Program-made: the position numbers and the translations under genes
Shown here: positions 15,204-37,233 of the stretch, piece by piece
Position numbering within the stretch: the first letter of the stretch is position 1
How the letters are laid out: every line of letters starts with the position of its first letter
Assembly: GCA_965215005.1 (NCBI GenBank)
Contig: CBDCCZ010000039.1
Coordinates: forward strand, 42,572 to 106,571
Length of the DNA stretch: 64,000 nucleotides
Direction: 5' to 3'
From: Kofleriaceae bacterium
GTDB lineage: Bacteria; Myxococcota_A; Polyangia; Haliangiales; Haliangiaceae
The notes under the pieces: model-generated
Told to the model about the DNA's origin: nothing
Seen by the model: the letters and a program-made list of their open reading frames with translations, nothing else
Database searches by the model: none

Positions 15204-16181
15204 CTACTCCTGAGCAGCGGGCTCGTCGAAGAGATCGGCGGCGACCTCCGCCTCGAGCGCGCGATCGAACCAGCGGTCGAGCCTTGTGCGATCGCGACAC
15301 GCCAAGATGGTCGCGCGCAGCTCGTCTGGGAGACGCACCTGTCGCGCATCGAGAATACGCAGGACCAGCTCGGCTCGCGCCGTGGTCTGTCCTAGCGCTT
15401 GACCTTCGGCGCGGAGTTTATCGGCGGTGGTTTCGATGAGTGCGGGCATGATCGGGTGAATCTGGCGGGTCGCTTCTTGGAGTATTTCTACTCCGATACC
15501 TGCGGTCTGCAACACGTATTCCACCAGCCGATGCAGGGCGCGCAGGCCGGTGCGGGAGTCCAGGGCGACGGCGCGGAGCAGCTCGGTCCATGCAACCAGA
15601 CGTTCCGGCAGCTCGTCGGAGCGAATGTACTTGAAGAGTAGACACACCACTGCTTCGAAGGTTCCTCGCCATAGCCGTTCGTCGGGCACTGCCGAGAGGT
15701 CGGTGAGGAGAAATCGAAAGTGCGGCACGTACGAAGACAGCACAGTGCACGCCGCGGGCGGCATGAGGAGAAGCTCGTCGAGCGACACGGGCGCGCGCCA
15801 GCCGAGCTCACTGTGGTGCAAGACCATGGGCAGCACTGGCGGCAGCTTGCGGCGACTGGTGTCTTCTTCTAGAAAGCGCTCCCAGATGCGAACCATGTAG
15901 CGCAACATCCGAAGCGGCATCAACGGATCCACCGAGCTCTGGTGCTCAAATAGGATGTATAGAAACGCGCTGCCGTCACCGTGGCGAAACGTCGTGGTGA
16001 AGAGCAGATCCGTCTGTCGCTCTTGCAGGTTCTCGTCTACGAACGAACCGGGTCGCGCTACCAGCGAGCTTAAGTCGAGTTGCTCGGCGACCTCTTGCGG
16101 GAGAAACGCGAGGAAGTGCGCCGCTGCATGAACAGGATCACCGAAGACACTGCGAAACAGCTTGTCGTGGGGGTTCGGCAT
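15204..16181 (-). CDS. Rpn/YhgA-family recombination-promoting nuclease (PD-(D/E)xK, 'putative transposase')
   Basis: N-terminal PHDKLF, SFVD..L...TDLL, YILFEHQS, MPLRMLRY, LPPVLPMVL and C-terminal T.A..LR.EG motifs; start moved to MPNPHD. Confidence 0.9.
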   Translation of the reverse strand: MPNPHDKLFRSVFGDPVHAAAHFLAFLPQEVAEQLDLSSLVARPGSFVDENLQERQTDLLFTTTFRHGDGSAFLYILFEHQSSVDPLMPLRMLRYMVRIWERFLEEDTSRRKLPPVLPMVLHHSELGWRAPVSLDELLLMPPAACTVLSSYVPHFRFLLTDLSAVPDERLWRGTFEAVVCLLFKYIRSDELPERLVAWTELLRAVALDSRTGLRALHRLVEYVLQTAGIGVEILQEATRQIHPIMPALIETTADKLRAEGQALGQTTARAELVLRILDARQVRLPDELRATILACRDRTRLDRWFDRALEAEVAADLFDEPAAQE

Positions 16182-16300
16182 GACGGGGCGCGGGACGAGT
16201 CGTCGACGCCAGCCCGATGGTGGCTGGTCACTCGCGCGACCCAAACCGCATCGCAAGACCGATGCCACGCGAAACTACGCCGATCCTCGCGTCCCCGGTC

Positions 16301-20655: not shown

Positions 20656-23600
20656 ATGCTAAAGCTACTGATGCGTAGCTCCCGGACAGAAGCTCTCGGC
20701 GGTGGCCGATTCGAGCTCCGCCGCATGCTGGGCGAAGGCGGCATGGGCGTCGTGTATGAGGCCTACGACCGCGAGCGCCGGTCCCTGGTGGCGCTCAAGA
20801 CCCTGCGCAGCCTTGAGCCAGATGCCCTGCTGCGCTTCAAGTCCGAGTTCCGCCGCCTCAGTAACCTCGTGCATCCCAACCTGGTGGCGTTTGGCGAGCT
20901 CGTCGATCACGACGGACAGCCGTTCTTCACCATGGAGCTGATCCGCGGCACCGAATTTCTCCGCTACGTGCGGCCGGGCCCCGCCGATGCCCCAGCGGCC
21001 GAGGGCACCGCCGCCGTCGAGCTCCCCGAAGATCTACAAAGCACACAAAGCTCGCTGTTCGCGGTCATGGGCGATGGCGACCATTCCGCCAGCGCCCCGC
21101 TGCCCTGCCGGCCGCTGCGCGCCGCACGATTCGACGAGCTGCGCCTGCGCAACAGTCTCACCCAGCTCGCCTCTGGGCTCGAAGCGCTCCATCAGAGCGG
21201 GATGGTCCATCGCGATATCAAGCCGTCGAATCTGCTCATCACCGACAGCGGCCGGCTCGTGATCCTCGATTTTGGCCTGGTGACCGATGCCGGCACCGAT
21301 CGCATCACCGATCAGGACCAGGTGGTTGGCACCGTCACGTATATGGCGCCAGAGCAGATGCGCTCGGCGGCGGTCGACGCGGCTGCCGACTGCTATTCGC
21401 TCGGGGTCATCTTGTACATCGCCCTCACCGGCGAGCGGCCGTTTTCCGGCAATCTCTATCAAATCCTGCGCAGCAAAGAACGCGAGCTTCCGGCACTGCC
21501 AAGCAGCTATGTCGACGGCGTTCCATCCGATCTCGAGACGCTTTGTATGGCCCTTTTGTCGTCCACGCCGGCGCAGCGTCCAACCGCGTCAGACGTGCTC
21601 GCGAGCGCTACTCGACACCAGCCAGCGCCGACCGTCAATGCCACCACGAGCATCGGCTTCGTAGGCCGCATCGACGAGCTACGCCTGGTGCGTGAAGCGC
21701 TCATGACCAGCCGAAGTCAGCCATGTGGGTGCGTCTTCGCGGGCGTCTCGGGCATCGGCAAATCGGCGCTGCTGCAGCAGGTTGGCGAGCGCGCCCGCGA
21801 GCTCGATGGCGCAGTGGTGTTGCACGGGCGCTGTTATCAGCGCGAGTCGATGCCGTACAAGGGCCTCGATGAGCTCGTCGATGAGCTCGCCGCCTATCTG
21901 CGCGAGCTCGAGCCAGCGGAAATCGACCGTCTCATTCCCAACGATGCCGGACTGTTGCCGCGAGTGTTTTCGGTGCTGCGGCGGATTCCGGCGCTCCGCG
22001 CGAGCGAGAGCGTGCAACCCCTCGGTGGTGCAGGACACGAGCTCCGCAGCGCGGCGTTCGCAGCGATGCGCGAGCTACTCCGCCGCCTCGCCGATGGGCG
22101 CCCCCTGGTGCTGATCATCGACGACGTGCAGTGGAGCGACGCCGATAGCCTGGCGCTGCTCAGCGAGCTTCTCAAAGCACCCGAAGCCCCGGCAGCGCTG
22201 CTGGTGCTCGCGCTGCGCACCGATGCCGACAGCCCGACGCTCACCCTCGAGACCCTGCAGCGCGCGCTTCCCATCGAGCTCCACCGAATCGATCTCGATA
22301 ACCTCTCGCTCGCCGACGCTCATGCGCTGACGCAGCGTTTGATCTCCGAGCATGGCGGCCGCATCGACGCTGCGGCGATCGCCGTCGAGTCGGCGGGCCA
22401 TCCGCTGTTCATCGATTCCTTGGTGCGTTACCGAATCGCTCAACCCGACGAAGAACGTCCGGTTAAGCTCGAAGAAGCCCTGTGGTGGCGAATTCAACGC
22501 CTAGACGCCGCAGCCCGCGAGCTACTCGAGCTGGTGTGCGTGGCCGGGCGTCCTGTCGAACGAGCAACCGCCGCACGGGCCACCAGCCCCGACCCCGCGC
22601 AGCTGGATCGGCTCTGCGGGCTCCTCGCGAGCGCGCATCTCATGCGTCAAGGCGGCGCCGGCGATAGCGGATTGCTCGAGCCATTCCACGACCGGGTTCG
22701 CGCCGCGGTGGTCCATCACCTCTCGGAAACGCAGCGTGCTCACTGGCATGGCCGGCTGGCGCTAGCGCTGGAGAGCACCGGCTCAGTCGATGTCGAGCGA
22801 CTTGGCGATCACTGGCGAGCCGCGGGTGAAGCGCGTCGCGCTGGAGAGTATTTCGAGCGCGCTGCGATCGAAGCCAAAGACGCGTTGGCGTTCGATCGCG
22901 CCGCCAGATTGTTTGCGGCGTGTCTCGAGCTCGCCAGCAATATCACCAGCGAGCGTGAGCGCGAGCTGCGCATCGCCATGGGCGACGCGTTGGTGGCGGC
23001 TGGACGCGGCTACGCTGGCGCCGAGCAATATTTGCGAGCGGCCAGCGGCGCCAGTCCCGCGATGGGGCTCGAGCTGCGCCGGCGGGCGGCGGAGCATCAA
23101 ATTCGCAGCGGGCACATCGACGCCGGCATGCGCGATCTCGATGCGGTGCTCCGCGAGGTCGGCCTCACCCTGCCGCAAACGCCACGGCAGGCGCTGGCGC
23201 ATCTGCTGTGGCGACGGTTGCGGCTCAAGGTGCGCGGGCTCAGATATCGGCTGCGTTCGAGCGACGACTTGACGCCAAGGCAGCGCACGCGAATCGATGC
23301 GTGTTGGTCGGCGGCCGCGTCGCTGGCGCTGGTCGACCCGCTGCGCGGCGTGTTGTTCCAGTCGCACAACCTGGCGCTGGCCCTGCAATGCGGCGAGCCG
23401 TATCGGGTTGCGCGCGCCCTCGCCGTGGAGGCGTGCTTCGTCTCCAACGCCGGTCCGAAGAAACGCAATCGCTGCCGAGAGCTGTGTGAGCAATCGCGCG
23501 CGCTAGCGAACTCGATCGAGGATCCCCACGCGCTGGCGTGGGCACGAACCGCCGAGGGCGCGGTAGCGTACTTGTTCGGCGACTGGCGCGCAGCTGTGGA

Positions 23601-24441
23601 AATCTGCCGCGACGGCGAAGAGAGGATGCGTCGCGTTGCCGGCGGCACGACCTGGGAGATCAACACTCTGCAGCTCTTTGGTCTGGCTTCGTCGCTCATC
23701 ACCGGCGACTTGCAGACCCTCTACGAGCTGCTCCCCGTGCGGCTGCGCGAGGCTGAAGATCGGGGCGATCTTTGGGCCGCTTTCAACCTGCGCACCGGCC
23801 ACGTCAATGCCGCGTGGCTAGCGCGCGGCGACGTCGCCCGCGCGCGCCGCCTTGCCGGCGAAGCGGCCAGCAACTTGTCGACACGGGGATTCTTCGTACA
23901 TCACTATTACGACCTGCTGGCGCACACGCAGATCGCCTTGTACGAGGGCGATGTCGCGGCGGCGCGCCAGCTCGTTCTCGCGCACTGGCCAGCATTTACC
24001 GGCTCCATGCTCACGCGGGTGCACCAAGTGCGCGCGTTTGCCTGGCACTTGCGCGCGCGCACCGCCGTTGCCGCTGCCGCCTACGCTAGCGCCGCCGAGC
24101 AGCCGCCGCTATTGCGCGAGGCGCGACAGATCGCCAAACGACTCCGGCGTGAAGGCGCCGCGTGGTGCACGGCGCTCGCGCTTGCCATCGAAGCCGGAGC
24201 AACCACGGTGAGCGGCCCCGCAGAGGCCGCTCGCGCCGCTCTGGCAACCGCACAACACGCCTTGGAAGCCGCCGACATGCAGCTCCACGCCGCCGCGTTG
24301 CGCCACCTGGCAAGCGCTCACTACGACGGCGAGGTCGGCACCCGGCTCGGCGCCGATACCCACGAGTGGTTTGCCGAGCGAAGCGTGCCCGAGCCGGCCA
24401 AGCTCGCGTTCATGCTGGTTCCGGGCGCGCGTCAACGCTGA
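20656..24441 (+). CDS. Ser/Thr protein kinase - STAND/AAA ATPase - TPR-like fusion (paralog 2)
   Basis: GEGGMGVVY, VALK, HRDIKPSN, DFG, APE; Walker A GVSGIGKS; Walker B LIIDDVQW; AGHPLF; colinear with paralog 1 along its length. Confidence 0.93.
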   Translation: MLKLLMRSSRTEALGGGRFELRRMLGEGGMGVVYEAYDRERRSLVALKTLRSLEPDALLRFKSEFRRLSNLVHPNLVAFGELVDHDGQPFFTMELIRGTEFLRYVRPGPADAPAAEGTAAVELPEDLQSTQSSLFAVMGDGDHSASAPLPCRPLRAARFDELRLRNSLTQLASGLEALHQSGMVHRDIKPSNLLITDSGRLVILDFGLVTDAGTDRITDQDQVVGTVTYMAPEQMRSAAVDAAADCYSLGVILYIALTGERPFSGNLYQILRSKERELPALPSSYVDGVPSDLETLCMALLSSTPAQRPTASDVLASATRHQPAPTVNATTSIGFVGRIDELRLVREALMTSRSQPCGCVFAGVSGIGKSALLQQVGERARELDGAVVLHGRCYQRESMPYKGLDELVDELAAYLRELEPAEIDRLIPNDAGLLPRVFSVLRRIPALRASESVQPLGGAGHELRSAAFAAMRELLRRLADGRPLVLIIDDVQWSDADSLALLSELLKAPEAPAALLVLALRTDADSPTLTLETLQRALPIELHRIDLDNLSLADAHALTQRLISEHGGRIDAAAIAVESAGHPLFIDSLVRYRIAQPDEERPVKLEEALWWRIQRLDAAARELLELVCVAGRPVERATAARATSPDPAQLDRLCGLLASAHLMRQGGAGDSGLLEPFHDRVRAAVVHHLSETQRAHWHGRLALALESTGSVDVERLGDHWRAAGEARRAGEYFERAAIEAKDALAFDRAARLFAACLELASNITSERERELRIAMGDALVAAGRGYAGAEQYLRAASGASPAMGLELRRRAAEHQIRSGHIDAGMRDLDAVLREVGLTLPQTPRQALAHLLWRRLRLKVRGLRYRLRSSDDLTPRQRTRIDACWSAAASLALVDPLRGVLFQSHNLALALQCGEPYRVARALAVEACFVSNAGPKKRNRCRELCEQSRALANSIEDPHALAWARTAEGAVAYLFGDWRAAVEICRDGEERMRRVAGGTTWEINTLQLFGLASSLITGDLQTLYELLPVRLREAEDRGDLWAAFNLRTGHVNAAWLARGDVARARRLAGEAASNLSTRGFFVHHYYDLLAHTQIALYEGDVAAARQLVLAHWPAFTGSMLTRVHQVRAFAWHLRARTAVAAAAYASAAEQPPLLREARQIAKRLRREGAAWCTALALAIEAGATTVSGPAEAARAALATAQHALEAADMQLHAAALRHLASAHYDGEVGTRLGADTHEWFAERSVPEPAKLAFMLVPGARQR

Positions 24442-24446
24442 GATGG

Positions 24447-26138
24447 TCAGCGAACCTCACGCCACAGACCAACCGGCAATAGATAGTCGCGAACCGCGCG
24501 CAGGTGAACTTCGACTCGCGGACTGGTTGCGTCGGGCGTGAGCCGCCGCAACCGCAGCGTGAGATACGGATCGTCGGCAAAGGCCTGGCCGTGCTCGCTC
24601 ATCAACTTGCGGACTGCCGCGCGGAGCTCGATTCGCGGCTCGGCGGCGATGCCGGTAGCGACGATGACGTCAGCCGCTGCGGTGCGGTTCCATCGCAGCT
24701 GCCAGCCGTAACGCTGCTCCAGGGTCCGCAGCCCTGCCATCACCTCCAGATCCTCGAATCGCACCTCATAGCCATTGTCGACGCGCGGCTCATCGAAGCC
24801 GACCATGCGCTCGAAGACGTAGCGCAATACCTTGTTACGCCGGGCCATGAGCACGTCCGTCACCAACGCCGCAGCCTCCTCTCGCTGATAGGCCGCCGTG
24901 CTCACCGCGGCTTCGACGTGCTCACGCTGAAAGTGCGCCATGATCGAAGCAGCCCAAAATTCGTCCTCGGCGGTGACTTCGTCGAAGGCGGGATTGGGCA
25001 TGATCGGGCGCCAGCGCTGGGGATCGAAGTACTCGGACTCGAAGATTCCCACTGATCGATAGGGGCTGCGTTGCGCGCCCAGCCAGTAGGGATACCTCAA
25101 CCCGAGGCCAAACATTCTCTTGAACACCTGGCTCCAGTCGATGCGGTATTCGTAGCCTTCACCGGCGTGCTTCTCGCGATCGCCGACCGCTCCGAGCGAG
25201 TCACCAAAGTCGATGAGGTAGTGGCGCACGTAGCCGAGATTTCGCTCCGCATCGACCTCGATGAACGCATCGATGGTGTTTTGGCTGCGGGTATCGGTGT
25301 TGTTTAGCCAAGCGGAGAAGAGTCGCAATCCGCGGAGGCTACGGCGTCGCTCGTGCGGAATGTTGTCGTTGGGGTCGTCGGCGCGCACGCCGCGATAGCG
25401 AAACGGCCCCACGGCACGCCCAGGTACCTGCCGGCTAAACAACGCATGCACGCGGCCTTCGCTGTTGGCGTTGAGCTGCAGGATGAGGACCCCGAGCGCT
25501 TCCTGGGTGAGCGGAATCGTGCGGTTGTAGTCGTCCACGGTGGTCGCGTTACTGGCCAGTCGCAGCCGCGACAGGTCGAGCTCGAGCAGATATGTCTCGG
25601 GCACCCAATACCCGGCCGCCCACACCAGCCGCGAGGCAGTCATCTCAGCGCCGGTGGTCAGCTGCGGAAAGCCAGGAGGGTCGAATTTGACGAACCAGAC
25701 CACTCCCTGGGAGTCGCGCACAACGGTGCCAGGCGTAGCGCCCTCAGTCTTGCCGCTGATGACGAGCAGCGAACCAGGGGCGGGACCAAATCCGGTGTTT
25801 GGCCCCTTCGCGACTGCCTCTGGGGTCAACACGTAGCGGCCCATCCGATTCGTAAACCACGTCGAGTCGGCAACCTCACCAAAGGCGTTCACATCGAGCG
25901 CGGGCCGCGACTCGGTGGCGGCATCGATCCAGCGCGCCGGGCTCAGTAACTTCGCGAACGGCACCACAGTGGTGTGCAGCGCGGTGTTCCACCAGTCGGT
26001 AGGGATTCCGCTGGTGATCGGTTGCCGGTGCAGCAGCTCCACCGGCGCACGCTGATAGATCTCATCGTGCGGGGATTTCTTCCAGGCGGGAACGCACGCA
26101 GCGACAGTGGTAATGAGCAGAGCTAGAGCGAGCCGCAT
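24447..26138 (-). CDS. Lipoprotein with atypical (HipA/PI3K-like) kinase-fold domain
   Basis: Lipobox VAA-C; GKTEGATP loop, FVKFD Lys, GAE Glu, WLNNTDTRSQN catalytic-loop-like segment, YLIDFG. Confidence 0.7.
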   Translation of the reverse strand: MRLALALLITTVAACVPAWKKSPHDEIYQRAPVELLHRQPITSGIPTDWWNTALHTTVVPFAKLLSPARWIDAATESRPALDVNAFGEVADSTWFTNRMGRYVLTPEAVAKGPNTGFGPAPGSLLVISGKTEGATPGTVVRDSQGVVWFVKFDPPGFPQLTTGAEMTASRLVWAAGYWVPETYLLELDLSRLRLASNATTVDDYNRTIPLTQEALGVLILQLNANSEGRVHALFSRQVPGRAVGPFRYRGVRADDPNDNIPHERRRSLRGLRLFSAWLNNTDTRSQNTIDAFIEVDAERNLGYVRHYLIDFGDSLGAVGDREKHAGEGYEYRIDWSQVFKRMFGLGLRYPYWLGAQRSPYRSVGIFESEYFDPQRWRPIMPNPAFDEVTAEDEFWAASIMAHFQREHVEAAVSTAAYQREEAAALVTDVLMARRNKVLRYVFERMVGFDEPRVDNGYEVRFEDLEVMAGLRTLEQRYGWQLRWNRTAAADVIVATGIAAEPRIELRAAVRKLMSEHGQAFADDPYLTLRLRRLTPDATSPRVEVHLRAVRDYLLPVGLWREVR

Positions 26139-27643
26139 CAGAGCTCCTTGCCGATCGATATCTTGAACTCCAGTCCCTCCGGCGAGCGGCCAAGGGTGAC
26201 ATCGAGGCCGCGTTTGGTCTCGTGAGCACCGCGGAGGCCCACGCCATACGAGTAAAGAAACTCGTCAACGAGTCCACGGGGCGTGTCACCGATGCCGCCG
26301 ACATCGACGAATACCAACGTTGAGAGGATGACGTTGGTCGTCATGTATTCCCACACTTGATACTGATATTCGAGATTACCCCACCAACCCCAGTTGCCGC
26401 GAAATCGGTCTTTGGCGTAGCCGCGCAGATGATTTTCGCGACCTAAGGTGACCAACTGGTGAAGCGGTACCTCTCCATCGCGGGTGAAGGGCTGCGCAAC
26501 AGCACTGCCGAGACGGACGACGAGCGTGCGATGGCGCGGCAGGACCGCAATGTACCTGGCGTACGCGATGCTCGCGGTGAGCGCGTTGAGGTCGGCGCCA
26601 CCGACGTCGGAAGTGATGCCTCCGGCGAGGCTGGCGAGGGCACCACGGGATGGGGTGCCGACGACATCGCGACTGTCATATAGCGCCACCAATTGCAGCT
26701 GCGGATAGTTATGGGTGTCGCCAAATCCGGGCGGGACGCCAGCGACGTCACCCACCATGAAACCGGGGATGTTTCGGTCGGTGCCGGTGGTGAGCGTTTG
26801 CCGACGGAAGCCGAGCTCGACCGAGCCAAATACGTCTTCGACACCGAGTCCAGTGAGATCTAGAGCCGCGACGGCCAACAGAGACTCGCTGCGCAGCACT
26901 CGGCGGTCGTCGAACTCGGTGTCCGCTCCGATGCCAAACCAACGCTGGTTGCCATCGAGCTCCCACTCGGCCTCGGCCGCAAGCTGCCGACCCTCGAGGC
27001 GCGGATACGTGTCTTGATAGCGCCCGCGCAGCTCGTAGTCGCCGTCGAAGCGATACAGCCCGCTGATGTCGACGACGTTGTCTTGGCCAAATAGCGAGTT
27101 CAACGACAGGGTCGCGCCGAGCCCGAGACCGTCGCCAAGGCCGAGCTTGAGGCGAGGCGACAGCTCGATCTTGCCGCCGTAGAACTCGGTCAAGTCTTTG
27201 TAGCGCTTGTCGAGGCGATAGCGCTCGGTGGTGATAACGAGCAGTCCGATGGGCGAAAACGCCACCTCGATCAATCGCTCGGGGAGCGCCAGGAGGTGCC
27301 AGACGAGCTCAAACGGCGGCCGCGGCTCATGCCACACATTCGTGGTGAGCTCAGCAGGCGGTGTATCGGGTCGCGTCCGCGGCGCCGGCTGCTCGAGCCA
27401 GCGCGGGTCGGAGACATCGGCTCCCGTGGTCGGCGCAGGTGGCGCGGCATCGCGCGGGGACGGCGGGCTTGCGGCGGGCGGGTTGGCCGTGGCAGGAGCC
27501 TGTGCGTCAGAATCGACGGCAGCCGGCGGCGCCTGCTCCGGCGGCGCCTGCTCCGGCGATTGCGCGACGACCTGTGGCGCGACGCCAAAAATGAATACGC
27601 CCAAGGCGGCCGCAACCCGCGCCTTACCGACCGATGATGGCAT
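26138..27643 (-). CDS. Omp85 (BamA/TamA-family) outer-membrane beta-barrel, no evident POTRA domains
   Basis: Signal peptide, Pro-rich linker, YDSRD, LG...LRGY..DRFRG, FVDVG, YSYGVGLR motifs. Its stop overlaps the next start (TGATG). Confidence 0.85.
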   Translation of the reverse strand: MPSSVGKARVAAALGVFIFGVAPQVVAQSPEQAPPEQAPPAAVDSDAQAPATANPPAASPPSPRDAAPPAPTTGADVSDPRWLEQPAPRTRPDTPPAELTTNVWHEPRPPFELVWHLLALPERLIEVAFSPIGLLVITTERYRLDKRYKDLTEFYGGKIELSPRLKLGLGDGLGLGATLSLNSLFGQDNVVDISGLYRFDGDYELRGRYQDTYPRLEGRQLAAEAEWELDGNQRWFGIGADTEFDDRRVLRSESLLAVAALDLTGLGVEDVFGSVELGFRRQTLTTGTDRNIPGFMVGDVAGVPPGFGDTHNYPQLQLVALYDSRDVVGTPSRGALASLAGGITSDVGGADLNALTASIAYARYIAVLPRHRTLVVRLGSAVAQPFTRDGEVPLHQLVTLGRENHLRGYAKDRFRGNWGWWGNLEYQYQVWEYMTTNVILSTLVFVDVGGIGDTPRGLVDEFLYSYGVGLRGAHETKRGLDVTLGRSPEGLEFKISIGKEL

Positions 27644-27646
27644 CGC

Positions 27647-28801
27647 TCACTCCGGTCGCGGCGGGTTTGGCTCGATGACCGTGGTATCGAAGACGTCGCC
27701 GTCGAGGTTCACTGCACGCAGCGTCATGCGCTTGTCAGCGACATCCACCAGCACGTAATGCGGCTCCGTGCGCGCCTGCGCGGTGAACGCTCTCGGCGTG
27801 ACAGGGCGAATCGGCGCCCCCGCCGATCCGCTCACGATATACGTGGTGCCGTCTAGCGGCTTGGTGCGCTCGTAATCGTGATCGTGCCCGGTGAGCACCA
27901 GCTCGACGCCATGCTTCTTGGCCAAGCCGGCAATCGGCCGTTGCACTTGCTCATTCGACCCGTGCCACCCCGATGAGTAGGGTGGATGGTGCAGCATCAT
28001 CACGATGAACATGTCCTTTTTAGCGGCCTCGCGCAGGACCCGATCGATGTAGCCGAACTGGGCGCAACCGTCGCGGCACTCGATTCCACTATCGACGGCA
28101 ACGAAACGCACGTTGCCCCAGTCGTGATAGAAGTACCGGCGGCCGTTGGTCCAGCGATCGAGCAGCCAATAATGGCCGAAGTAGTCGCGGGCTCCCATGT
28201 CGTGGTTGCCGATGGCGGGGATGATCGGGGTCTTGACCAGCAGCGGTCGCTCGATCTGAAAAAAGCGATCCCACTGCGCTTTGATCCCGCCGCGCTCGAC
28301 CATGTCACCGGTGTTGATCACCACGTCGAGCTCCTCGCGCGCCATTGCCTCGATGAGATCGCGATGAACGCGGTGACCATTGCGAGTGTCGCCAAATGCT
28401 GCGAAGCGCAGCGGCTGACCCGCGGCCACACCGAGTCGAAAGGTGTACGCTTGCGTGGCCCCCTTCTGCGAGACCACCCGATAGCGGATCTTGGCGTGCG
28501 GTGGCACGTCGGTGAGCTTGGCTATCCACAAATCGCCATCGGGCTCGGCCTCGACCTCGACCGCCGTCGACGGGTCGGCGTCGGCAAGCCACCACTCCAC
28601 GCGGGGCGCGCTAATCAGCGACGCTTTGAGCGCGACATAGGCGGTGGTCTCATCGCCTACTAGAATGTATGGACCGGTGGTGAACAGTGCCGGCTCGGGC
28701 TCACTCCAGCCGGCGCGCTCCTGCGGAGGAACGCCGCACCCCGCGGCAAACAATGCGAGCCCAGCGCAAACGGCAAACCATGAACCAGTGCGATACTGCA
28801 T
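27647..28801 (-). CDS. Purple-acid-phosphatase-like metallophosphoesterase, lipoprotein
   Basis: Lipobox AAG-C; FN3-like N-domain; FGDTR, TGDMV, GNHD, HHPPYSSG, GHDHDYER metal motifs. Confidence 0.9.
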   Translation of the reverse strand: MQYRTGSWFAVCAGLALFAAGCGVPPQERAGWSEPEPALFTTGPYILVGDETTAYVALKASLISAPRVEWWLADADPSTAVEVEAEPDGDLWIAKLTDVPPHAKIRYRVVSQKGATQAYTFRLGVAAGQPLRFAAFGDTRNGHRVHRDLIEAMAREELDVVINTGDMVERGGIKAQWDRFFQIERPLLVKTPIIPAIGNHDMGARDYFGHYWLLDRWTNGRRYFYHDWGNVRFVAVDSGIECRDGCAQFGYIDRVLREAAKKDMFIVMMLHHPPYSSGWHGSNEQVQRPIAGLAKKHGVELVLTGHDHDYERTKPLDGTTYIVSGSAGAPIRPVTPRAFTAQARTEPHYVLVDVADKRMTLRAVNLDGDVFDTTVIEPNPPRPE

Positions 28802-28865: not shown

Positions 28866-29903
28866 ATGCGGTTGCACGCGCTCACGGCAGGTTTTCTCAC
28901 GCTGCTCGTCTCGATGAGCTGCGGGGCACCGCAGCCGCGCGAGGCTCAACCTGCCGTTGACGGCACCTCGCCGCAGCGCGAGCCTGCCGGCTGCAAGGCC
29001 GGCGACGTCGCCGACTGCGTCAGCCGCGCACGAGCGCAATGCGAAGCCAGTCGCGCAACCGTTTGGGAAGTTCACAGCGACGGCTTTCCCGATCTGGTCG
29101 TGGCACCGCCGCTGGTGCGCGCGCGCTATCTCGGGTCCACGATCTATTCCGTCGACGGCCAGCACTGGCTGGCCTGCGTCGAGCAGTGCCCCGAGTCGTC
29201 ATCGCCGCAGCCGAGCTGCTTTCCGCTGCATGCACCGATCTCGATGATGCTGCGCTACGACGCCACCTGCCGCGTACAGGATCGCGCCGATGAGCCATGG
29301 CAGGAGCAGCTGGCTCGCCAGCTGGTCGTCGACTGCGGCGCCGCGCCGAGCTCGATTCGCTACGTGCCGGCGTACGAAGCGGTGGCGCGAGCGCTAGTCG
29401 AGACGGGGGTCATCGCCGCCGACTCACCGCTAGCTCGGCTCGGCGGCTTGCCGGTCGCAATGGTCTCCGAGGGCGCGCCAGTGTTCGAGGTAACCGAGGT
29501 GACTCCGGCGAGCTGCGATGCCTTCGCGTTGCCGCCAAGCGCCACTATCGTGTCCTCGCCGGCGGCCCATCGCGAGCTGGGGGAGCTGTATCCGCGGTTT
29601 CGCGCCCGCGCCGACGCGGCCGCCGCGGCGTTGACGGAAACCCGACTCGGCGAAGCGGAGGATGCGTTGCTCGCCCAAGCGAGCTCGGACCTAGCCGAGC
29701 GCTGCGCCGGCGCTGGCCTTGCAGCCAGCAGCGAGGCTGAGCTGCAACGATGTTTGCGCACCCAACCCGACATCCGCGGCTGGATCGCAAACCTGCTCGC
29801 CGACCGTCTTGCTCAGGCCCGGCGCGGCCTTTCGGACGAGCTGACCGAGCTGCGCCGGCGCGAGTACCTCGGGCCGCTATGCCGCCACTTCTCAACGCCG
29901 TAA
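28866..29903 (+). CDS. Cys-containing hypothetical lipoprotein
   Basis: 345-aa ORF with GC3-rich codons; signal ending LVSMS-C; several spaced Cys; helical C-terminus. Confidence 0.65.
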   Translation: MRLHALTAGFLTLLVSMSCGAPQPREAQPAVDGTSPQREPAGCKAGDVADCVSRARAQCEASRATVWEVHSDGFPDLVVAPPLVRARYLGSTIYSVDGQHWLACVEQCPESSSPQPSCFPLHAPISMMLRYDATCRVQDRADEPWQEQLARQLVVDCGAAPSSIRYVPAYEAVARALVETGVIAADSPLARLGGLPVAMVSEGAPVFEVTEVTPASCDAFALPPSATIVSSPAAHRELGELYPRFRARADAAAAALTETRLGEAEDALLAQASSDLAERCAGAGLAASSEAELQRCLRTQPDIRGWIANLLADRLAQARRGLSDELTELRRREYLGPLCRHFSTP

Positions 29904-30078: not shown

Positions 30079-30091
30079 TAAGTGACTGATT
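30079..30091 (-). promoter_or_regulatory. Possible IHF binding site
   Basis: Minus strand AATCAGTCACTTA matches WATCAR-N4-TTR, in an AT-richer patch about 30 bp upstream of a sigma-54 box. Confidence 0.4.
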
Positions 30092-30119
30092 TAGAAGCCG
30101 GCAACTCGGTAGGCCAGCC

Positions 30120-30135
30120 TGGCTCTGCCCTTGCA
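30120..30135 (+). promoter_or_regulatory. Putative sigma-54 promoter of the M15 peptidase gene
   Basis: TGGCTC-TGCCC-TTGCA, GG-N10-GC; -12 C is 17 nt before ATG 30151. Confidence 0.6.
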
Positions 30136-30150
30136 CAATGGCGCCTCCGC

Positions 30151-31518
30151 ATGCCTGTACAGAACTCGTTCTCGTGGATGTATCGCGGCGCCCTCCTCGC
30201 GCTGGCCCTCACCTCCGCCTCGGGTTGCCTTCTCGGCGACACCGGCGCCTACGAGCCGATGGACGACAGCGTCGACGCCGGCATCGATGGAGATTCTCAC
30301 GATCATCATGACGACCTGCTCGTGGATCCGAATGAGCCTGAGCCCGATGTGCTGTACGCGCCGTCGCTCACGGTGGACCAGGTGATGTGGAACTACTGCA
30401 GCACGGCGCCGGTGCGCGGACTGTCCGAGCAGATCGCCGAAGAAATCGAATGCCTTCGCCCCGGCACGATGGCCTCGCTCAGCGGCATTCCGGGCGTCTC
30501 GGTGAACTCCGGCACGTTGCCGTACCTGCAGCGCGAAGCAGCCGCGAGCCTCGGACGGGTTACGGCCGGTGGCGGCACGATCAGCATCAACTCGGGGCTG
30601 CGCAGCACCGCGCAGCAATACATTCTGTATCGCTGGGATCAGCTCAATCGCTGTCGCCACGTCGTCATCACCGCGGCCCCTCCAGGCGGCTCGAATCACG
30701 AGTCGGGGTTGGCCATCGATGTCTCCGATGCCTATAGCTGGCGCTCGCGGCTGGGGAGCCGCGGGTTTCGTTGGTTTGGCAGCGGCGACGCGGTGCATTT
30801 CGATTACGTCACCGGCGGCACCGACATTCGCCACTTGGCCGTGCAGGCGTTCCAGCGGTTGTGGAACCGCAACAACCCCGGTGACCGCATCTCCGAAGAC
30901 GGCGACTACGGCGGCACCACCGAATCGCGCCTCAAGCGCGCACCGGCTGCGGGGTTCGCGCGCGGCCCGAGCTGCTCACCCATGCCATCGGCCAACGCCG
31001 CCGCCATGGAGGTCTTCTGGCAACGCGAGCGCGACGGCAGCTACGCGCTCCGGGCATTGGCGCCGCAGCAGGTGAACCGCGTCGAATACTATGTCGACGG
31101 CTATCCGGTTGGCGAAGCGACGCGCGGCGCGGAAAACAACTTCCCAACCAGCTATCGATTCACCTCCAATGGCAGCGAGCGGCGCTTCGAGGCGCGCGGC
31201 TTCGACGGCAGCGGCGAGCTCGTGGCCCGCGGCGTGGGTCTGATGGACGTGACCGACGGAGCTGCTATCTACATTCGCCAAATGGGCAAGCGGCTGTATG
31301 AGATCGGCATGGAAGGCGCGCCTGAAGCGATCGCGGCGATCGAGGTCGATGCCGACCAATGGACCCTCACGGACAGCGTCACCGGCCAGGCGCGCTCCAC
31401 GCGGAAGGCGGTTCGCTCGACGTTCACGATGCTCGGCGAGCGGACGTTCAAGATCACCACGTTCAACGCCGACGGCTCGTCGCGCGGCTCGCTCTACCGA
31501 ACGTTCACCCTCGAGTAA
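30151..31518 (+). CDS. M15-family (VanY-like) Zn peptidoglycan peptidase lipoprotein with peptidoglycan-binding-like and two Ig-like repeats
   Basis: Lipobox ASG-C; SGLRS..QQ, SNHESGLAID (SxHxxGxAxD), DAVHFD; AFQRLWN...EDGDYG PG-binding-like; duplicated C-terminal beta domain. Start may be 30178. Confidence 0.85.
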   Translation: MPVQNSFSWMYRGALLALALTSASGCLLGDTGAYEPMDDSVDAGIDGDSHDHHDDLLVDPNEPEPDVLYAPSLTVDQVMWNYCSTAPVRGLSEQIAEEIECLRPGTMASLSGIPGVSVNSGTLPYLQREAAASLGRVTAGGGTISINSGLRSTAQQYILYRWDQLNRCRHVVITAAPPGGSNHESGLAIDVSDAYSWRSRLGSRGFRWFGSGDAVHFDYVTGGTDIRHLAVQAFQRLWNRNNPGDRISEDGDYGGTTESRLKRAPAAGFARGPSCSPMPSANAAAMEVFWQRERDGSYALRALAPQQVNRVEYYVDGYPVGEATRGAENNFPTSYRFTSNGSERRFEARGFDGSGELVARGVGLMDVTDGAAIYIRQMGKRLYEIGMEGAPEAIAAIEVDADQWTLTDSVTGQARSTRKAVRSTFTMLGERTFKITTFNADGSSRGSLYRTFTLE

Positions 31519-32763: not shown

Positions 32764-34170
32764 TTACATCTGCGCGGCGCGGATGACCCCCGTGAGCTCG
32801 GTACCCCGATAGAACTCGCTCACGCGCCGCATATCGCCGCGAGCGACGGCGTAGGCGATCGCTGCCGAAGCGGCCATCGCCGTCTGCTCGCTGGGCATCG
32901 CCGCCGCCTCGCCGGTGCGCGGATCCCACGCACTGGCGTTGCCGGCGCGATCGATCCCGCCAAACCAACCGGTCTTTAAATGCCCGTTGCCGAGCACGTA
33001 CACCCAATTGCTGTTGCCGGGGGTGCCATCAGGCCAACCGTTGCGATTGAGCGGCGTCTTGGGGGTGTCGCCGTGAATCGAGATGACCACGCTATCGGCC
33101 AGCGTCTGACCTGCGCAGCTGGCGTCTTCTAGTGTCATCAAGTCGTCGTAGAACGCTTGCAAGATCTGCCCTATCCCCAGCGTCGTGCTGCGCAAGTTGT
33201 TCATGTCGTTGAACGCACCGTGCGGATCATCGCGAAGCACCGGCACCATCACCGAGCTGGTGAGGCCCATGGCAAAGGCTTTTGCGGTGATGATCAGCGC
33301 CGTGGCCATCTCGCTGAGCTTGGTTTGCGTCGCCGGGCCGATGCCATACCGAGCGCGGTCGGCGTCGTTGACCTGCAATGCACTGGCGAGGTTGGTGCCG
33401 AGCAAGCTCGACGCCGTCTTGCCCGTTGCGAAGGGCCGCAAGGTAGTGGGCATGCCAGCAGCCGCATTGAGCGACAACAGCGCCTTGTAGCTCGCATCGT
33501 AGAGCTCGGCGTCGGCGCGCTGCTCGAGAACCCCACCGGCGCGCGACGCGGCGCTGTTGAACAGCGAAACGATTTGCTCGGCAGCACCCACGCGGGAGAC
33601 GCGCGGAGCTCCCGGCGCTGCACCAAACGGCGCATTGTCGATGGCGATCGCCGGCACCAAGGTGGGATTGGTGGTCTGCATCGCGGCACACGCCGCAAAC
33701 AGCGACGTACCGGCGCCGATGGTCGAGCTCGTCGAAGGAGTTTGCGTGTGGGTCTCGTTGGAGCCCGACATCAAAGCGGTCACTTGCTTGCGGCCATCAA
33801 GGCCGCGCCACGGCGCTTCGGGACCCAACGTGAGCGGCCGATCGGTCCCCGGCGCCAGCGTCTCCTCGCCGATGGCATGCCATGCAAACCCCGCATTTCG
33901 CGCCGCGGCGACGTCATTGTGCGGCCACAGCAGCTGAAACCACGCCAAGCCGCCGTTGCCGCCGATCAGGTGCACCGAGCGGTTGGTTGGATGACACGCG
34001 GCTTCATCGGCCAACGCCACGCCGCCGGCACCGCCGAGGAGCTCGTAGACCTTCCAGCGGGGGATCGCCAGCGCCGCGCCCGCCGCGACGCTCCACTTGA
34101 TGAGGCTCCGACGCGACAGCTGGCGGCGTTCTTCGCGCTCGCGGCGCTTGTTACTTCCAAAGAGTCCCAT
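32764..34170 (-). CDS. Tat-exported protein resembling DUF1501/DUF1552-type proteins
   Basis: Twin-arginine SRRSLIK; GGNGG; DPH; GDTPKTP; GWPD motifs; last gene of the cytochrome cluster. Confidence 0.65.
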   Translation of the reverse strand: MGLFGSNKRREREERRQLSRRSLIKWSVAAGAALAIPRWKVYELLGGAGGVALADEAACHPTNRSVHLIGGNGGLAWFQLLWPHNDVAAARNAGFAWHAIGEETLAPGTDRPLTLGPEAPWRGLDGRKQVTALMSGSNETHTQTPSTSSTIGAGTSLFAACAAMQTTNPTLVPAIAIDNAPFGAAPGAPRVSRVGAAEQIVSLFNSAASRAGGVLEQRADAELYDASYKALLSLNAAAGMPTTLRPFATGKTASSLLGTNLASALQVNDADRARYGIGPATQTKLSEMATALIITAKAFAMGLTSSVMVPVLRDDPHGAFNDMNNLRSTTLGIGQILQAFYDDLMTLEDASCAGQTLADSVVISIHGDTPKTPLNRNGWPDGTPGNSNWVYVLGNGHLKTGWFGGIDRAGNASAWDPRTGEAAAMPSEQTAMAASAAIAYAVARGDMRRVSEFYRGTELTGVIRAAQM

Positions 34171-34184
34171 GGCACTTGTCCTCG

Positions 34185-34874
34185 CTATTCACAGGTGTGA
34201 GCGGCCGCCAGCAGCGCTGCGACGGCCATGTGCTTGCCCTTTTCGACAGAGCTGCCGCGGGTCACCATCTGATTGCAGACCTCGAGATGGCCCGCGGTGG
34301 CCGGCACGCCGACCAGGCACGTGATGCCATCGACGGAGCACTGATTCGAGTCGTTGAATAGCCGCGCCCCCACGCCACCAACTTGGCATTCCGGTCGATT
34401 GGGCAGCTGCGCGATGATCTCAGGCGCAGCCTGCACGAAGATGTCGAACAGCTTCGAAGCACTGGCCGTGGTGAGCTCGAGGTTCTCGCGCGACCGCGCC
34501 GCATAGCTAGCGGCGCCAAGCGCTTGGTCACTGGTTCGCCACAGCTGCCCAGCGGCGAGCTCACCGGCGGCCGCCAGGTCCACACCGCGCGACGCCAGCA
34601 GTCGGCCGATGGTCGCGTAACGCATTTTTGGGCACGAATGAATTCGCGCGGTGAAGCTCGGCGGCCCCTCTTCTTGCAACCGATCGAGCAGCTCCCACAC
34701 ATCCGGCATCGAGTCGGGATGATCGTACGTATTGTCCTGCCCACCGCTCGCGGCACCACTGGGGGTGTCTGCGGCAGCGCCCGAGTCATCGGCATCGGGG
34801 TCATCAATCTCACCGGCACATCCGATTACCAGCGTAAAGAGCACCGCCCACAGCACCAAACCGAGCTTGTTCAT
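34185..34874 (-). CDS. Cys-rich hypothetical lipoprotein
   Basis: Start after GGAGG; signal MNKLGLVLWAVLFTLVIG-C. The upstream extension in the ORF track overlaps the previous gene and is discarded. Confidence 0.75.
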   Translation of the reverse strand: MNKLGLVLWAVLFTLVIGCAGEIDDPDADDSGAAADTPSGAASGGQDNTYDHPDSMPDVWELLDRLQEEGPPSFTARIHSCPKMRYATIGRLLASRGVDLAAAGELAAGQLWRTSDQALGAASYAARSRENLELTTASASKLFDIFVQAAPEIIAQLPNRPECQVGGVGARLFNDSNQCSVDGITCLVGVPATAGHLEVCNQMVTRGSSVEKGKHMAVAALLAAAHTCE

Positions 34875-34906
34875 CGTTGCCTCCTGGACGCGCGCTGAGC
34901 TCATTT

Positions 34907-36079
34907 CTAAAACCTCACGAAGTCGTCGCTGGTGAAGATGGCGAGCAGCGCATCTCGCAGCTGATAGTTGTTCGACTCGAAAGCGCTCACGTGCTGCGCG
35001 ATCACCTCGGAGGGAACCACCGCGAGCGAATCGACGATGTCGGCTTTGCCCAGCGCCCAGTTCCACACCCGCGCGATAAGGCACTCGTGCACCGCCGGAT
35101 CCGCGGCCATTGCCGCACCCAAGCTCGGCAGGTCTAAGGCCGGCACCCCGAGTCGCCACGCCGTCGCTTCTCCCGCTGGCAGCCAATCCGTGGGTGCCGT
35201 GCGCGGGCTGCCTTCGGTTGGGTTGCTCACCGCGATGTCCGCCGTCCACGCGCCGCTCTCGTCAAAGGTGCCAAACAGCGGCGCCAGATGATTCATGCTC
35301 GAGTGGCAGTTGGCGCACACCACCGATGAGGTGTCGAGGAAGTCGACGGTGCCGCCGTTGGCGGTCCCAGCGATGCTCTCGAGCGGCCATGGAGAGGTGT
35401 ACGCAGCGCCTCCGCCGACCTCGGTTGACTCGCTCACCTCGGCAGGAAACGCGCCGCAGGCGAACGTCTCCTGCACCCAACGCACCCGCCGAAACGCCAT
35501 GTTCGAGAAGAAGTGCGCTTGCACACCGGGATTGCTGAGCACCCCCGCGTGCGCCGGCACTCCATTGCCGCAGTCGCCGGCGGCGAAGCTGCCCGTGGCG
35601 GGATCGAAGCTTGGACAGGTGCCGACGGTGGCGGTGAACAGCTCGGTCATCGGCCGGTTCTCCACCACCAGCTGCGCAGCAAACGCCGGAGCGCTGTCGA
35701 GCAGCGGCGAGCCGCCCATCTTGAACGTGTCGCGCCAGAAGTCGAGCATCTGGCCCGCGAACCGCGGATCTTGCAAATACTGCGCAATCAAAGCCTCGTA
35801 GGCGGCCTTTTGGTCGACCGCGTCGGCGACGAACTTGATTTCCGCCAGGGTCGGCAGCTGCCCGGTCAGTCGCAGCGCCGCGATGCGCAGCGCGGCGCTG
35901 TAATCGACCGTGCGCATCGCTAGCAGCGCCGTCCACTCGTCGGTGGTGGTCGACGGGTCATCCGGTTGCGAGTCATCGACGTCGGCCAAACCGCTGTCGT
36001 CGGCGTCGCCACCGCAGCCGGGTGCCATCGCCATCCACAGGCACGCGCCGACTCCAAGCCAGGTGCCAAAGCGTTTCAT
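34907..36079 (-). CDS. Monoheme lipoprotein with planctomycete-type PSD/PSCyt (DUF1549/DUF1588/DUF1585-like) segments
   Basis: AAGGAG RBS; lipobox APG-C; LR...L.LTG.LPT; HAGVL; R.R...ETFAC; CANCH..M..LA..F..FD..G; C...VWNWALG. Confidence 0.7.
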   Translation of the reverse strand: MKRFGTWLGVGACLWMAMAPGCGGDADDSGLADVDDSQPDDPSTTTDEWTALLAMRTVDYSAALRIAALRLTGQLPTLAEIKFVADAVDQKAAYEALIAQYLQDPRFAGQMLDFWRDTFKMGGSPLLDSAPAFAAQLVVENRPMTELFTATVGTCPSFDPATGSFAAGDCGNGVPAHAGVLSNPGVQAHFFSNMAFRRVRWVQETFACGAFPAEVSESTEVGGGAAYTSPWPLESIAGTANGGTVDFLDTSSVVCANCHSSMNHLAPLFGTFDESGAWTADIAVSNPTEGSPRTAPTDWLPAGEATAWRLGVPALDLPSLGAAMAADPAVHECLIARVWNWALGKADIVDSLAVVPSEVIAQHVSAFESNNYQLRDALLAIFTSDDFVRF

Positions 36080-36123
36080 GAGGCTCTCCTTTGCTCTGCC
36101 AAAAGCCACTTCGCTGCGCGCCA

Positions 36124-37233
36124 TCACGGTGCTGCGACCTCGGTGTTGATCCACACCAGGACCTGGTCGCGAAACGCCGTGAATGCGGCCGGGTCGCCGC
36201 CAAACTTGAACGGGTGACCGGCCCCCGAGAGCGGATCGGGCGCGACGAACAGGCCGCTGTTGGGAGGATCCGCCAAGTTCACTCGGCTGAGAATCTGGCC
36301 ACAGGCCGCCGCTTGCGCTTCGGGAGCCAAATCGCCGAGCCGAGACATGTCGGTGGCCGCGGTTGCCGAGGCATCCGCCCCCGCGTGGCAGCTGGCGCAA
36401 TTGGCGGCTAACGCTGGCTGCGCGTTGGTGGTGAACGAAGCGACGTCTTTGCACCCAGCGGCCGTTGGCACCTCGCCGCCGGCCGCTGGTTCGGCCAGCG
36501 AAAAGTGCAGCGACAGCATCGCCTCGACCGGCACATTCACCAGCACCACGGTGCCGCCACCGATCATGGCGCTGGTCGCCGGCTGCAGGCTCAGCTCGAC
36601 GTCTGCGAAGCGGTCGATTGGATCTGGAGTTGGCAGGCCATCGCTCCACGTGACCAGCAGCGGATGGGTTAGATGCGCGCCAGCGGGGCCGGCGTTGACC
36701 ATCAGCTCGGAGAGATAGATGCCGACCTGAAGCCGCTCGAGGCGAAACGTAACGGTCGAGCCCGGCAGGCCAATTTGCGCCAAATCAATGGTGTTGATGC
36801 CGACCACAGGCGCAAAGGCAGCAGTCTGCGAGATTGCCGCCGGCTCGACCGCCCGGGCGTCGGCTTCCAAGCCAATCCAGGCCTCGACACTTGCCTGCTG
36901 CGCCGCCGTCCACGCTGGGCCGTCGTGGGACCCTTTAGCCAAGAGACGACTACTCGCCGGAGACTCGAGGTTGACTAACCCCGGCCACGCCATCACCGCG
37001 GTGTAGACATCGGGATCGGGCGCCACGAAGCCAATGCTGCCCGGGGTCGAGTGGCACGCCGCGCAGAAGCCATTGAGCAGCGGCGTGATGTCGCTGTCGA
37101 ACATCGCCCGCGCTTGCGCCGCGCCATCCGCGCCTGCATCGGCGCCGCCGGGATTGAAGGTTTCGATACCGCCCGTACAACCCGCCGCGGCAACAAGCAG
37201 GGCGGCAGCGGCTGCCGAACCAAGGACATGCAT
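36124..37233 (-). CDS. Di-heme c-type cytochrome lipoprotein (planctomycete cytochrome c-like)
   Basis: Lipobox AAG-C; two repeats F...I.P.L...C..CH (CAACH, CASCH) each followed by VNL..P..S.L...H....W. Confidence 0.8.
   Translation of the reverse strand: MHVLGSAAAAALLVAAAGCTGGIETFNPGGADAGADGAAQARAMFDSDITPLLNGFCAACHSTPGSIGFVAPDPDVYTAVMAWPGLVNLESPASSRLLAKGSHDGPAWTAAQQASVEAWIGLEADARAVEPAAISQTAAFAPVVGINTIDLAQIGLPGSTVTFRLERLQVGIYLSELMVNAGPAGAHLTHPLLVTWSDGLPTPDPIDRFADVELSLQPATSAMIGGGTVVLVNVPVEAMLSLHFSLAEPAAGGEVPTAAGCKDVASFTTNAQPALAANCASCHAGADASATAATDMSRLGDLAPEAQAAACGQILSRVNLADPPNSGLFVAPDPLSGAGHPFKFGGDPAAFTAFRDQVLVWINTEVAAP

Follow-up and report, generated by a model that had tools for sequence, protein, structure and literature searches.

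The window analysed here, a stretch of 64,000 nucleotides from a Kofleriaceae bacterium (GenBank assembly GCA_965215005.1, contig CBDCCZ010000039.1, positions 42,572 to 106,571), holds a minus-strand operon of three genes: a metallophosphoesterase (27647-28801), an Omp85 outer-membrane barrel (26138-27643) and an exported lipoprotein with an atypical kinase fold (24447-26138). This set of a kinase-fold, a barrel and a phosphatase-family gene is widely conserved. In many relatives the kinase gene set lies beside genes for ATP/ADP carriers of the NTT family, and it is therefore likely to serve an ATP-driven phosphorylation in the cell envelope. The complete reading, in which a barrel-associated periplasmic kinase would be fed with exported ATP, has in our judgement about an even chance of being correct. 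All parts are of known fold; what would be new is the system, as deduced from genome comparison.

The tight coupling of the genes described in the original prediction was recovered in all respects: the positions of the open reading frames, a 3-nt gap between phosphoesterase and barrel, and a TGATG overlap between barrel and kinase. The three are separate reading frames, each with a stop and its own signal-like N-terminus, and the GC content of the operon is ordinary for the window.

The kinase-fold protein has 563 amino acids and a lipobox-like motif at Cys15. [quoted passage not shown] The best ten matches of a Foldseek search against the PDB are all Fam20 proteins (E 3e-4 to 8e-4). With VIA-align, run over 48,161 chains, the top 14 are PKL structures; scores among them were 13.9 for both CtkA and Hydra Fam20, 13.6 for Golgi casein kinase, 12.9 for PI4KII-alpha, 12.2 for CotH, 11.9 for actin-fragmin kinase, 11.2 for HipA and 10.6 for MavQ, and residues 445-551 match FnIII-like domains. 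K151 lies at the end of a strand in the model and E165 in the following helix. Two hallmarks of the PKL superfamily are thus present, namely the bilobal fold and the ordered series of Lys, acid, Asp, Asn and DFG Asp. The PKL fold that had been proposed for this gene is borne out by the model and by both structure searches, and on this basis an atypical PKL fold (Fam20/CtkA/PI4KII/CotH-like) is practically certain.

The kinase sequence brought no useful match in searches of Pfam, NCBIfam, PDB and plasmids, and no family hidden Markov model (HMM) of Fam20C (PF06702), CotH (PF08757) or HipA (PF07804/PF20613) matched at E<=0.1. Atlas scores of 0.78-0.80 for Fam20C/CotH/HipA-type families serve as leads only. 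The protein belongs to a family of 1160 clusters at 50% identity (E<=1e-30), which has no Pfam entry and spans Myxococcota, Acidobacteriota, Zixiibacteriota, Latescibacterota, Ignavibacteria, Marinimicrobia and others. Most relatives of the window gene for which a name is given are Kofleriaceae or other Myxococcota. The catalytic residues named in the original prediction are conserved across phyla: among 146 diverse homologs K151 is kept in 144, D282 and N287 in 140 each and D310 in 143, and position 165 is acidic in 135 (Glu in 102, Asp in 33). We consider it likely, with a good margin of confidence, that the protein would be an active enzyme.

Such an enzyme might perform other PKL chemistry, such as nucleotidyl transfer or an ATP hydrolysis that drives gating of the barrel, or it might bind nucleotides only. 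PKL folds can AMPylate or glutamylate (PMC10870513), the identity to any solved kinase is only 8-17%, and a fused kinase-like family discussed below carries Arg in place of the expected Lys and Gln in place of the expected Asn. In the window family, however, the canonical series of Lys, Glu/Asp, Asp, Asn and DFG is intact, and its members are accompanied by phosphatases from two unrelated folds (PF00149 and PAP2). These alternative chemistries are highly improbable.

Export was assessed with a pattern test on the N-termini, not with a trained predictor. A hydrophobic N-terminal stretch occurs in 142 of the 146 homologs against 1 in the control window. Of 119 close homologs, 89 show a lipobox-like pattern (shuffled mean 6), as do 77 of 145 diverse ones (shuffled mean 8). 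This supports the export signals claimed earlier, and an extracytoplasmic location of the kinase, presumably in the periplasm, is very likely.

The constant partner of the kinase is the barrel, a protein of 501 amino acids that matches PF01103 with 43 bits against a cut-off of 24 (E 5e-11). It consists of a signal-like N-terminus, a Pro/Ala-rich linker and a barrel from about residue 164, with an LRGY motif at 406. R407 and R413 are invariant in 74 homologs, in agreement with the loop-6 RGY..R motif of the Omp85 superfamily. No POTRA domain was matched in Pfam, which places the protein in the 'noNterm' class, but a short segment at about 105-160 is unexplained. The barrel gene lies directly upstream of the kinase gene in 76 of 80 genome loci; the four misses are two truncated contigs, locus L049 and one tandem-kinase locus where the barrel precedes the first copy. 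The same holds for all 63 metagenome loci with room for it (one contig repeats a genome locus) and for all four kinase paralogs of the Kofleriaceae genome (G000). Besides the window locus this genome has three barrel-kinase cassettes: C38:106982-111691 with an upstream NTT gene, C12:35528-40231 with a divergent, not co-oriented, phosphoesterase, and C58:34895-38138, which is bare. Barrel and kinase are the core of the module. That the kinase is the functional partner of the barrel is highly probable, and it may dock on it.

As an alternative, the barrel might move the kinase, and with it the phosphatase, to the cell surface or into prey, where they would act as effectors like the secreted CtkA and CotH. 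Omp85/TpsB barrels translocate partners from the same operon (PMC11358297), secreted kinases are the top fold matches and the C-terminal Ig-like domain suits surface proteins. Yet the barrel has no POTRA domain, lipobox-type anchors are common in the kinase homologs, the family is present in numerous lineages for which predation is not known, and the linkage to an inner-membrane carrier (see below) is easier to explain with a periplasmic enzyme. The features of TpsB and TpsA proteins are also absent: neither a POTRA nor a haemagglutination-type domain was found and the ShlB match is below threshold (13.6 against 22.7 bits). Two-partner-secretion-like export is distinctly unlikely, and the surface display through the barrel suggested in the original prediction found no support in any test run.

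Clustering of all other neighbours showed that NTT/TLC carriers are the commonest other neighbours of the kinase loci. All 12 carriers tested match PF03219; homology to the solved ATP/ADP carriers 9J3N/9J3J was seen at E 2e-43. They are found in 24 of the 80 genome loci (BLAST clusters had given 26, which was lowered after HMM analysis because two are HEAT-only fragments), in 16 of the 32 metagenome loci that span 9 kb or more and in 19 of 80 metagenome loci overall. The linkage is most clearly seen in a phylum represented by 167 genomes: NTT genes occur in 41 of the 43 genomes that have the kinase and in 14 of the 124 that lack it (41 of 43 against 13 of 124 with an independent Pfam model), and in 30 of the 43 they lie within 5 kb of the kinase, where about 0.9 would be expected. 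Moreover, the kinase is present in each of the 33 genomes that encode a single-domain NTT. For the phylum of the window itself, an NTT gene is within 5 kb in 9 of 11 genomes with a full-length kinase. The typical operon, as described from 20 loci chosen mostly for a nearby NTT, comprises barrel, kinase, an optional phosphoesterase, NTT, NTT-HEAT, a cyclic-nucleotide (cNMP)-binding protein and a receiver. The Kofleriaceae genome has, in addition to the NTT-barrel-kinase cassette on contig C38, three more NTT genes. Overall the link between NTT carriers and the kinase family is strong but not exclusive, and an ATP supply through NTT would be somewhat better than an even bet.

Two other gene arrangements were seen around the carriers. 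At L161:10224-12027 and L162:6991-8725, Na/Pi cotransporter and PhoU genes separate the phosphoesterase gene of the operon from its NTT genes. In genomes without the kinase, proteins of about 1000 amino acids with a nucleotide-binding PPDK_N domain (PF01326) are encoded between or beside NTT genes (L266:11067-14192, L267:10956-14027 and L268:11042-14452); two of the three have signal-peptide-like N-termini by eye, and they may represent a second exported consumer of ATP supplied by NTT.

The same linkage can be read in the opposite direction, as scavenging. The barrel would then admit phosphorylated compounds such as nucleotides of lysed cells or polyphosphate, the kinase-fold protein would move phosphate onto ADP or other acceptors, the NTT would import the nucleotide and the phosphoesterase would free inorganic phosphate (Pi). 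Every characterised ATP/ADP NTT indeed imports ATP (PMC5381601, PMC2606016). A Na/Pi cotransporter with PhoU stands inside the operon in 2 of the 20 selected loci, and the kinase family has sixteen columns with 80% or more basic residues, as would befit a polyanionic substrate. On the other hand, the basic residues may be structural, and because of the high cytosolic ATP/ADP ratio the exchanger would run outward in a free-living cell unless periplasmic ATP were higher. We also know of no PKL enzyme that uses polyphosphate. Scavenging is rather unlikely, and the donors named in the original prediction, polyphosphate or scavenged nucleotide, are less favoured than ATP exported by NTT carriers, given the linkage in relatives.

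The genes that follow the carriers could point to signalling instead: kinase and barrel would form an envelope sensor, nucleotide turnover would be read by the NTT-HEAT protein and passed on to cNMP-binding, receiver and histidine-kinase proteins, and phosphorylation of structural substrates would be secondary. Operons often continue with NTT, NTT-HEAT, a cNMP-binding protein and a response regulator, and PAS histidine kinases are found nearby. But NTT-HEAT together with cNBD is found widely where the kinase is not (PMC5381601), 17 of 62 long NTT genes in the 167-genome phylum lie near a kinase, none of the operon genes named here flanks the window locus, and signalling genes are abundant in such genomes. 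We regard a signal relay as very unlikely.

The phosphoesterase is a less regular companion. It has 384 amino acids from the ATG at 28801 (an alternative upstream GTG start at 28900, minus strand, is possible), a lipobox-like motif at Cys22 and a PF00149 match of 65.9 bits against a cut-off of 21.5 (E 8.3e-18), and it shows the D, GD, GNH, H and GHxH motifs. Purple acid phosphatases have a set of seven metal ligands that includes the Tyr of GDxxY. Six of these are kept (D138, D166, N199, H271, H306 and H308), whereas the Tyr position holds Glu169; Tyr is present in only 7 of 29 aligned partners. The full set of ligands that had been claimed is therefore one short, and because of this Glu the protein is, by the Tyr feature, not a purple acid phosphatase. 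A same-strand phosphoesterase occurs in 29 of the 80 genome loci, and in 18 of these its gene immediately precedes that of the barrel. The metagenome loci, mostly short, have one in 7 of 80 cases. In the clade of the window locus, 16 of the 19 loci with enough sequence have it upstream of the barrel. The earlier view of the three genes as a unit thus holds for the constant barrel-kinase core but not for the phosphoesterase, which is variable. The partners are of several sequence types, and phosphatases of the PAP2 family recur near other cassettes in two clusters of 7 and 3 loci. That various phosphatases have been recruited time and again is in line with a write/erase or Pi-release function, though it is not proof of one. 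A writer/eraser pairing of kinase and phosphoesterase is plausible; that the phosphoesterase would erase the very mark set by the kinase is a more tentative claim, for which we see a little less than an even chance.

According to the original prediction the three genes might be a split version of single-chain metallophosphoesterase-Omp85 fusions. Such fusions exist. They were reached via a short sequence motif followed by a homolog search: the motif gave 18 sites in 17 of the 167 genomes, and 15 of 16 fetched motif loci encode single chains with a kinase-like domain N-terminal to an Omp85 barrel. One motif-selected fusion has 1242 amino acids and a phosphoesterase-like N-terminus, and its homologs are PF00149+PF01103 proteins, that is, the 'Metallo' subfamily of Heinz and Lithgow (2014, PMC4104836). 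The fused chains (L136-L150, P0272-P0391) are of two kinds, kinase-like-Omp85 of about 860 amino acids and metallophosphoesterase-kinase-like-Omp85 of about 1240. Their middle domain has invariant kinase-type motifs and no family annotation.

Outer parts of the Metallo chains are clearly matched by the window proteins, with E 1.3e-24 for the whole barrel and E 2.4e-19 for the phosphoesterase. The kinase matches the middle domain weakly (hhalign E 0.00095, probability 22%, 269 collinear columns, motif on motif; E 0.0067 with a second alignment), and its profile does not detect the fused kinase-like domain with hmmsearch. A search for longer forms with the close kinase alignment found none among 8000 candidates, which is weak evidence, and a PF00149 search of five genomes gave no fusions of about 1240 amino acids. 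Because of the weak alignment of the middle domain the split version is an architectural parallel, with orthology not demonstrated. In our reading the fusions and the window kinase stand for two distantly related kinase-like families, each linked to barrels that are related to one another, with no proven simple split. The Metallo type has PF00149 and barrel on one chain, whereas the window has three separate genes, so that the window locus is not itself a member. In the available text of PMC4104836 noNterm and Metallo barrels are described as similar, the PF00149 domain is called a metalloprotease and the word 'kinase' has 0 occurrences. The PlpD-type (patatin-like) Omp85 fusions treated there likewise tether an enzyme domain to a barrel; PlpD, however, is a POTRA-bearing hydrolase that needs no ATP, whereas the window module combines a transferase fold with a candidate energy supply. 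The fused genes also meet the carriers: in a sample of the window's own phylum, three of three directly follow NTT genes.

For the window locus itself the NTT connection is indirect. A quick tree places its clade (support 100) as sister (97) to two loci with the order NTT-phosphoesterase-barrel-kinase. Close NTT genes are present in trans in all 15 own-clade genomes tested (the clade has 22 loci), at E<=1.5e-106, against a background of 23 of 151 genomes at 1e-100. Two of the 22 loci have an NTT gene elsewhere in the fetched stretch, each time with a second kinase cassette there. Among the short carriers, 56 of 63 keep a Lys aligned to the Lys of GKAAID, which we take to be the counterpart of AtNTT1 K527.

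A number of observations weigh against a kinase supplied by NTT. No NTT gene adjoins or lies within the cassette in any of the 22 own-clade loci, the window included, and the carriers in trans may serve other paralogs. NTT genes of any kind are common in the window's phylum (86 of 151 genomes). Of 20 NTT loci chosen away from known kinases, 11 contained neither a recognisable exported kinase nor another candidate ATP user. The profile used for NTT derives from kinase loci and therefore favours linked carriers, and related genomes in the counts are not independent. In 42 of the 63 short carriers the AELW motif has Gly in place of its Glu. The three NTT-linked fusions belong to one family and therefore count as about one event, and the fused type of the 167-genome phylum occurs without NTT (0 of 16 loci, 3 of 17 genomes). 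Most loci lack a phosphatase partner, and the partners that do occur belong to several unrelated types. The NTTs that have been characterised are importers of ATP; some transport NAD or other nucleotides, one transported none, and those of free-living bacteria are untested (PMC5381601). Finally, activity, localisation and transport are here inferred from genes and models.

Taken together, we propose that the kinase-fold lipoprotein likely works in the periplasm, partnered with its own Omp85 barrel, and that ATP is probably delivered by an NTT-family exchanger encoded elsewhere in the genome. ATP would move out, with ADP and Pi returning. NTTs swap ATP against ADP plus Pi (PMC2606016), and the latter two are what a kinase-phosphatase cycle would produce; the neighbouring phosphoesterase would likely remove the phosphate again. 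The most likely substrate of the kinase is a component of the envelope that is located at the barrel or passes it. A lipid or glycan head group is our tentative first choice, a protein is possible at slightly lower rank, a small solute is doubtful and any other acceptor improbable. The slight tilt to a lipid or glycan follows from the PI4K- and Fam20B-like fold neighbours, the PAP2 partners and the PlpD precedent.

Several other genes of the window were noted. On the plus strand, a gene at 20656-24441 encodes a Pkinase-AAA_16 protein of about 1265 amino acids and ends, convergently, 5 nt from the stop of the kinase-fold gene. This cytoplasmic Ser/Thr kinase-AAA gene was considered as an operon member and rejected: it is on the opposite strand, and such genes are generic neighbours. 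A second large kinase gene at 11274-15089 (plus strand, about 1265 amino acids) is similar to it by eye. Divergent from the operon lies a lipoprotein-like reading frame of 345 amino acids without a Pfam match (28866-29903, plus strand), followed at 30082-31518 (plus strand) by a protein with a VanY D,D-carboxypeptidase-type domain and a lipoprotein-like N-terminus. The reading frame at 15204-16268 (minus strand) resembles, by eye, an Rpn/YhgA-type transposase. In a gene cluster at 32764-37233 (minus strand) the exported proteins look myxobacterial in type and, by eye, show CxxCH and Tat-like motifs.

As fold relatives the window kinase has the secretory-pathway kinases Fam20C/A/B and also CtkA, CotH, PI4KII-alpha and HipA. 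From these it differs in having 9-15% identity and no family HMM match, and in being a bacterial lipoprotein with a C-terminal Ig-like domain that is tied to an Omp85 barrel and NTT carriers. The barrel resembles the noNterm proteins of PMC4104836, which likewise lack POTRA domains. The linked carriers resemble the NTT and NTT-HEAT(-cNBD) proteins of Major et al. (2017, PMC5381601): they too are PF03219 proteins, single-domain and HEAT-fused, followed by cNBD genes. Here the proposed direction would be export to the periplasm, and the carrier lies outside the window. The available part of that paper reports no kinase or Omp85 neighbours and no NTT function in free-living cells. No published description of the kinase-barrel-NTT combination was found in a search that covered mainly the open literature; supplements (of PMC4104836, PMC5381601 and a bioRxiv PKL survey) or KINtaro could list the family. 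The accessible text of bioRxiv 10.64898/2026.09.18.752743 does not mention BamA or metallophosphoesterases.

The module bears on three matters that the literature leaves open. According to a 2020 review (PMC7432876), the route of ATP to the periplasm is unknown, and no ATP/ADP translocase is known to be encoded by Gram-negative bacteria; the role of NTTs in free-living bacteria is an open question (PMC5381601), and so is the function of noNterm and Metallo Omp85 proteins (PMC4104836, PMC11358297). The gene set described here joins these three questions in one testable system and adds a large kinase family without a Pfam entry. In a wider and more tentative picture, for which we would give somewhat less than even chances, parasite-type NTTs running in reverse would form a dedicated periplasmic ATP line in free-living diderms of many phyla. 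This line would power Fam20-like kinases docked at the outer membrane, with phosphatases and the return of ADP plus Pi closing the cycle, as a bacterial counterpart of phosphorylation in the Golgi lumen. The window locus would then be a satellite writer/eraser cassette fed in trans, and the 'Metallo' fusions may be unrecognised phosphatase-kinase-barrel machines.

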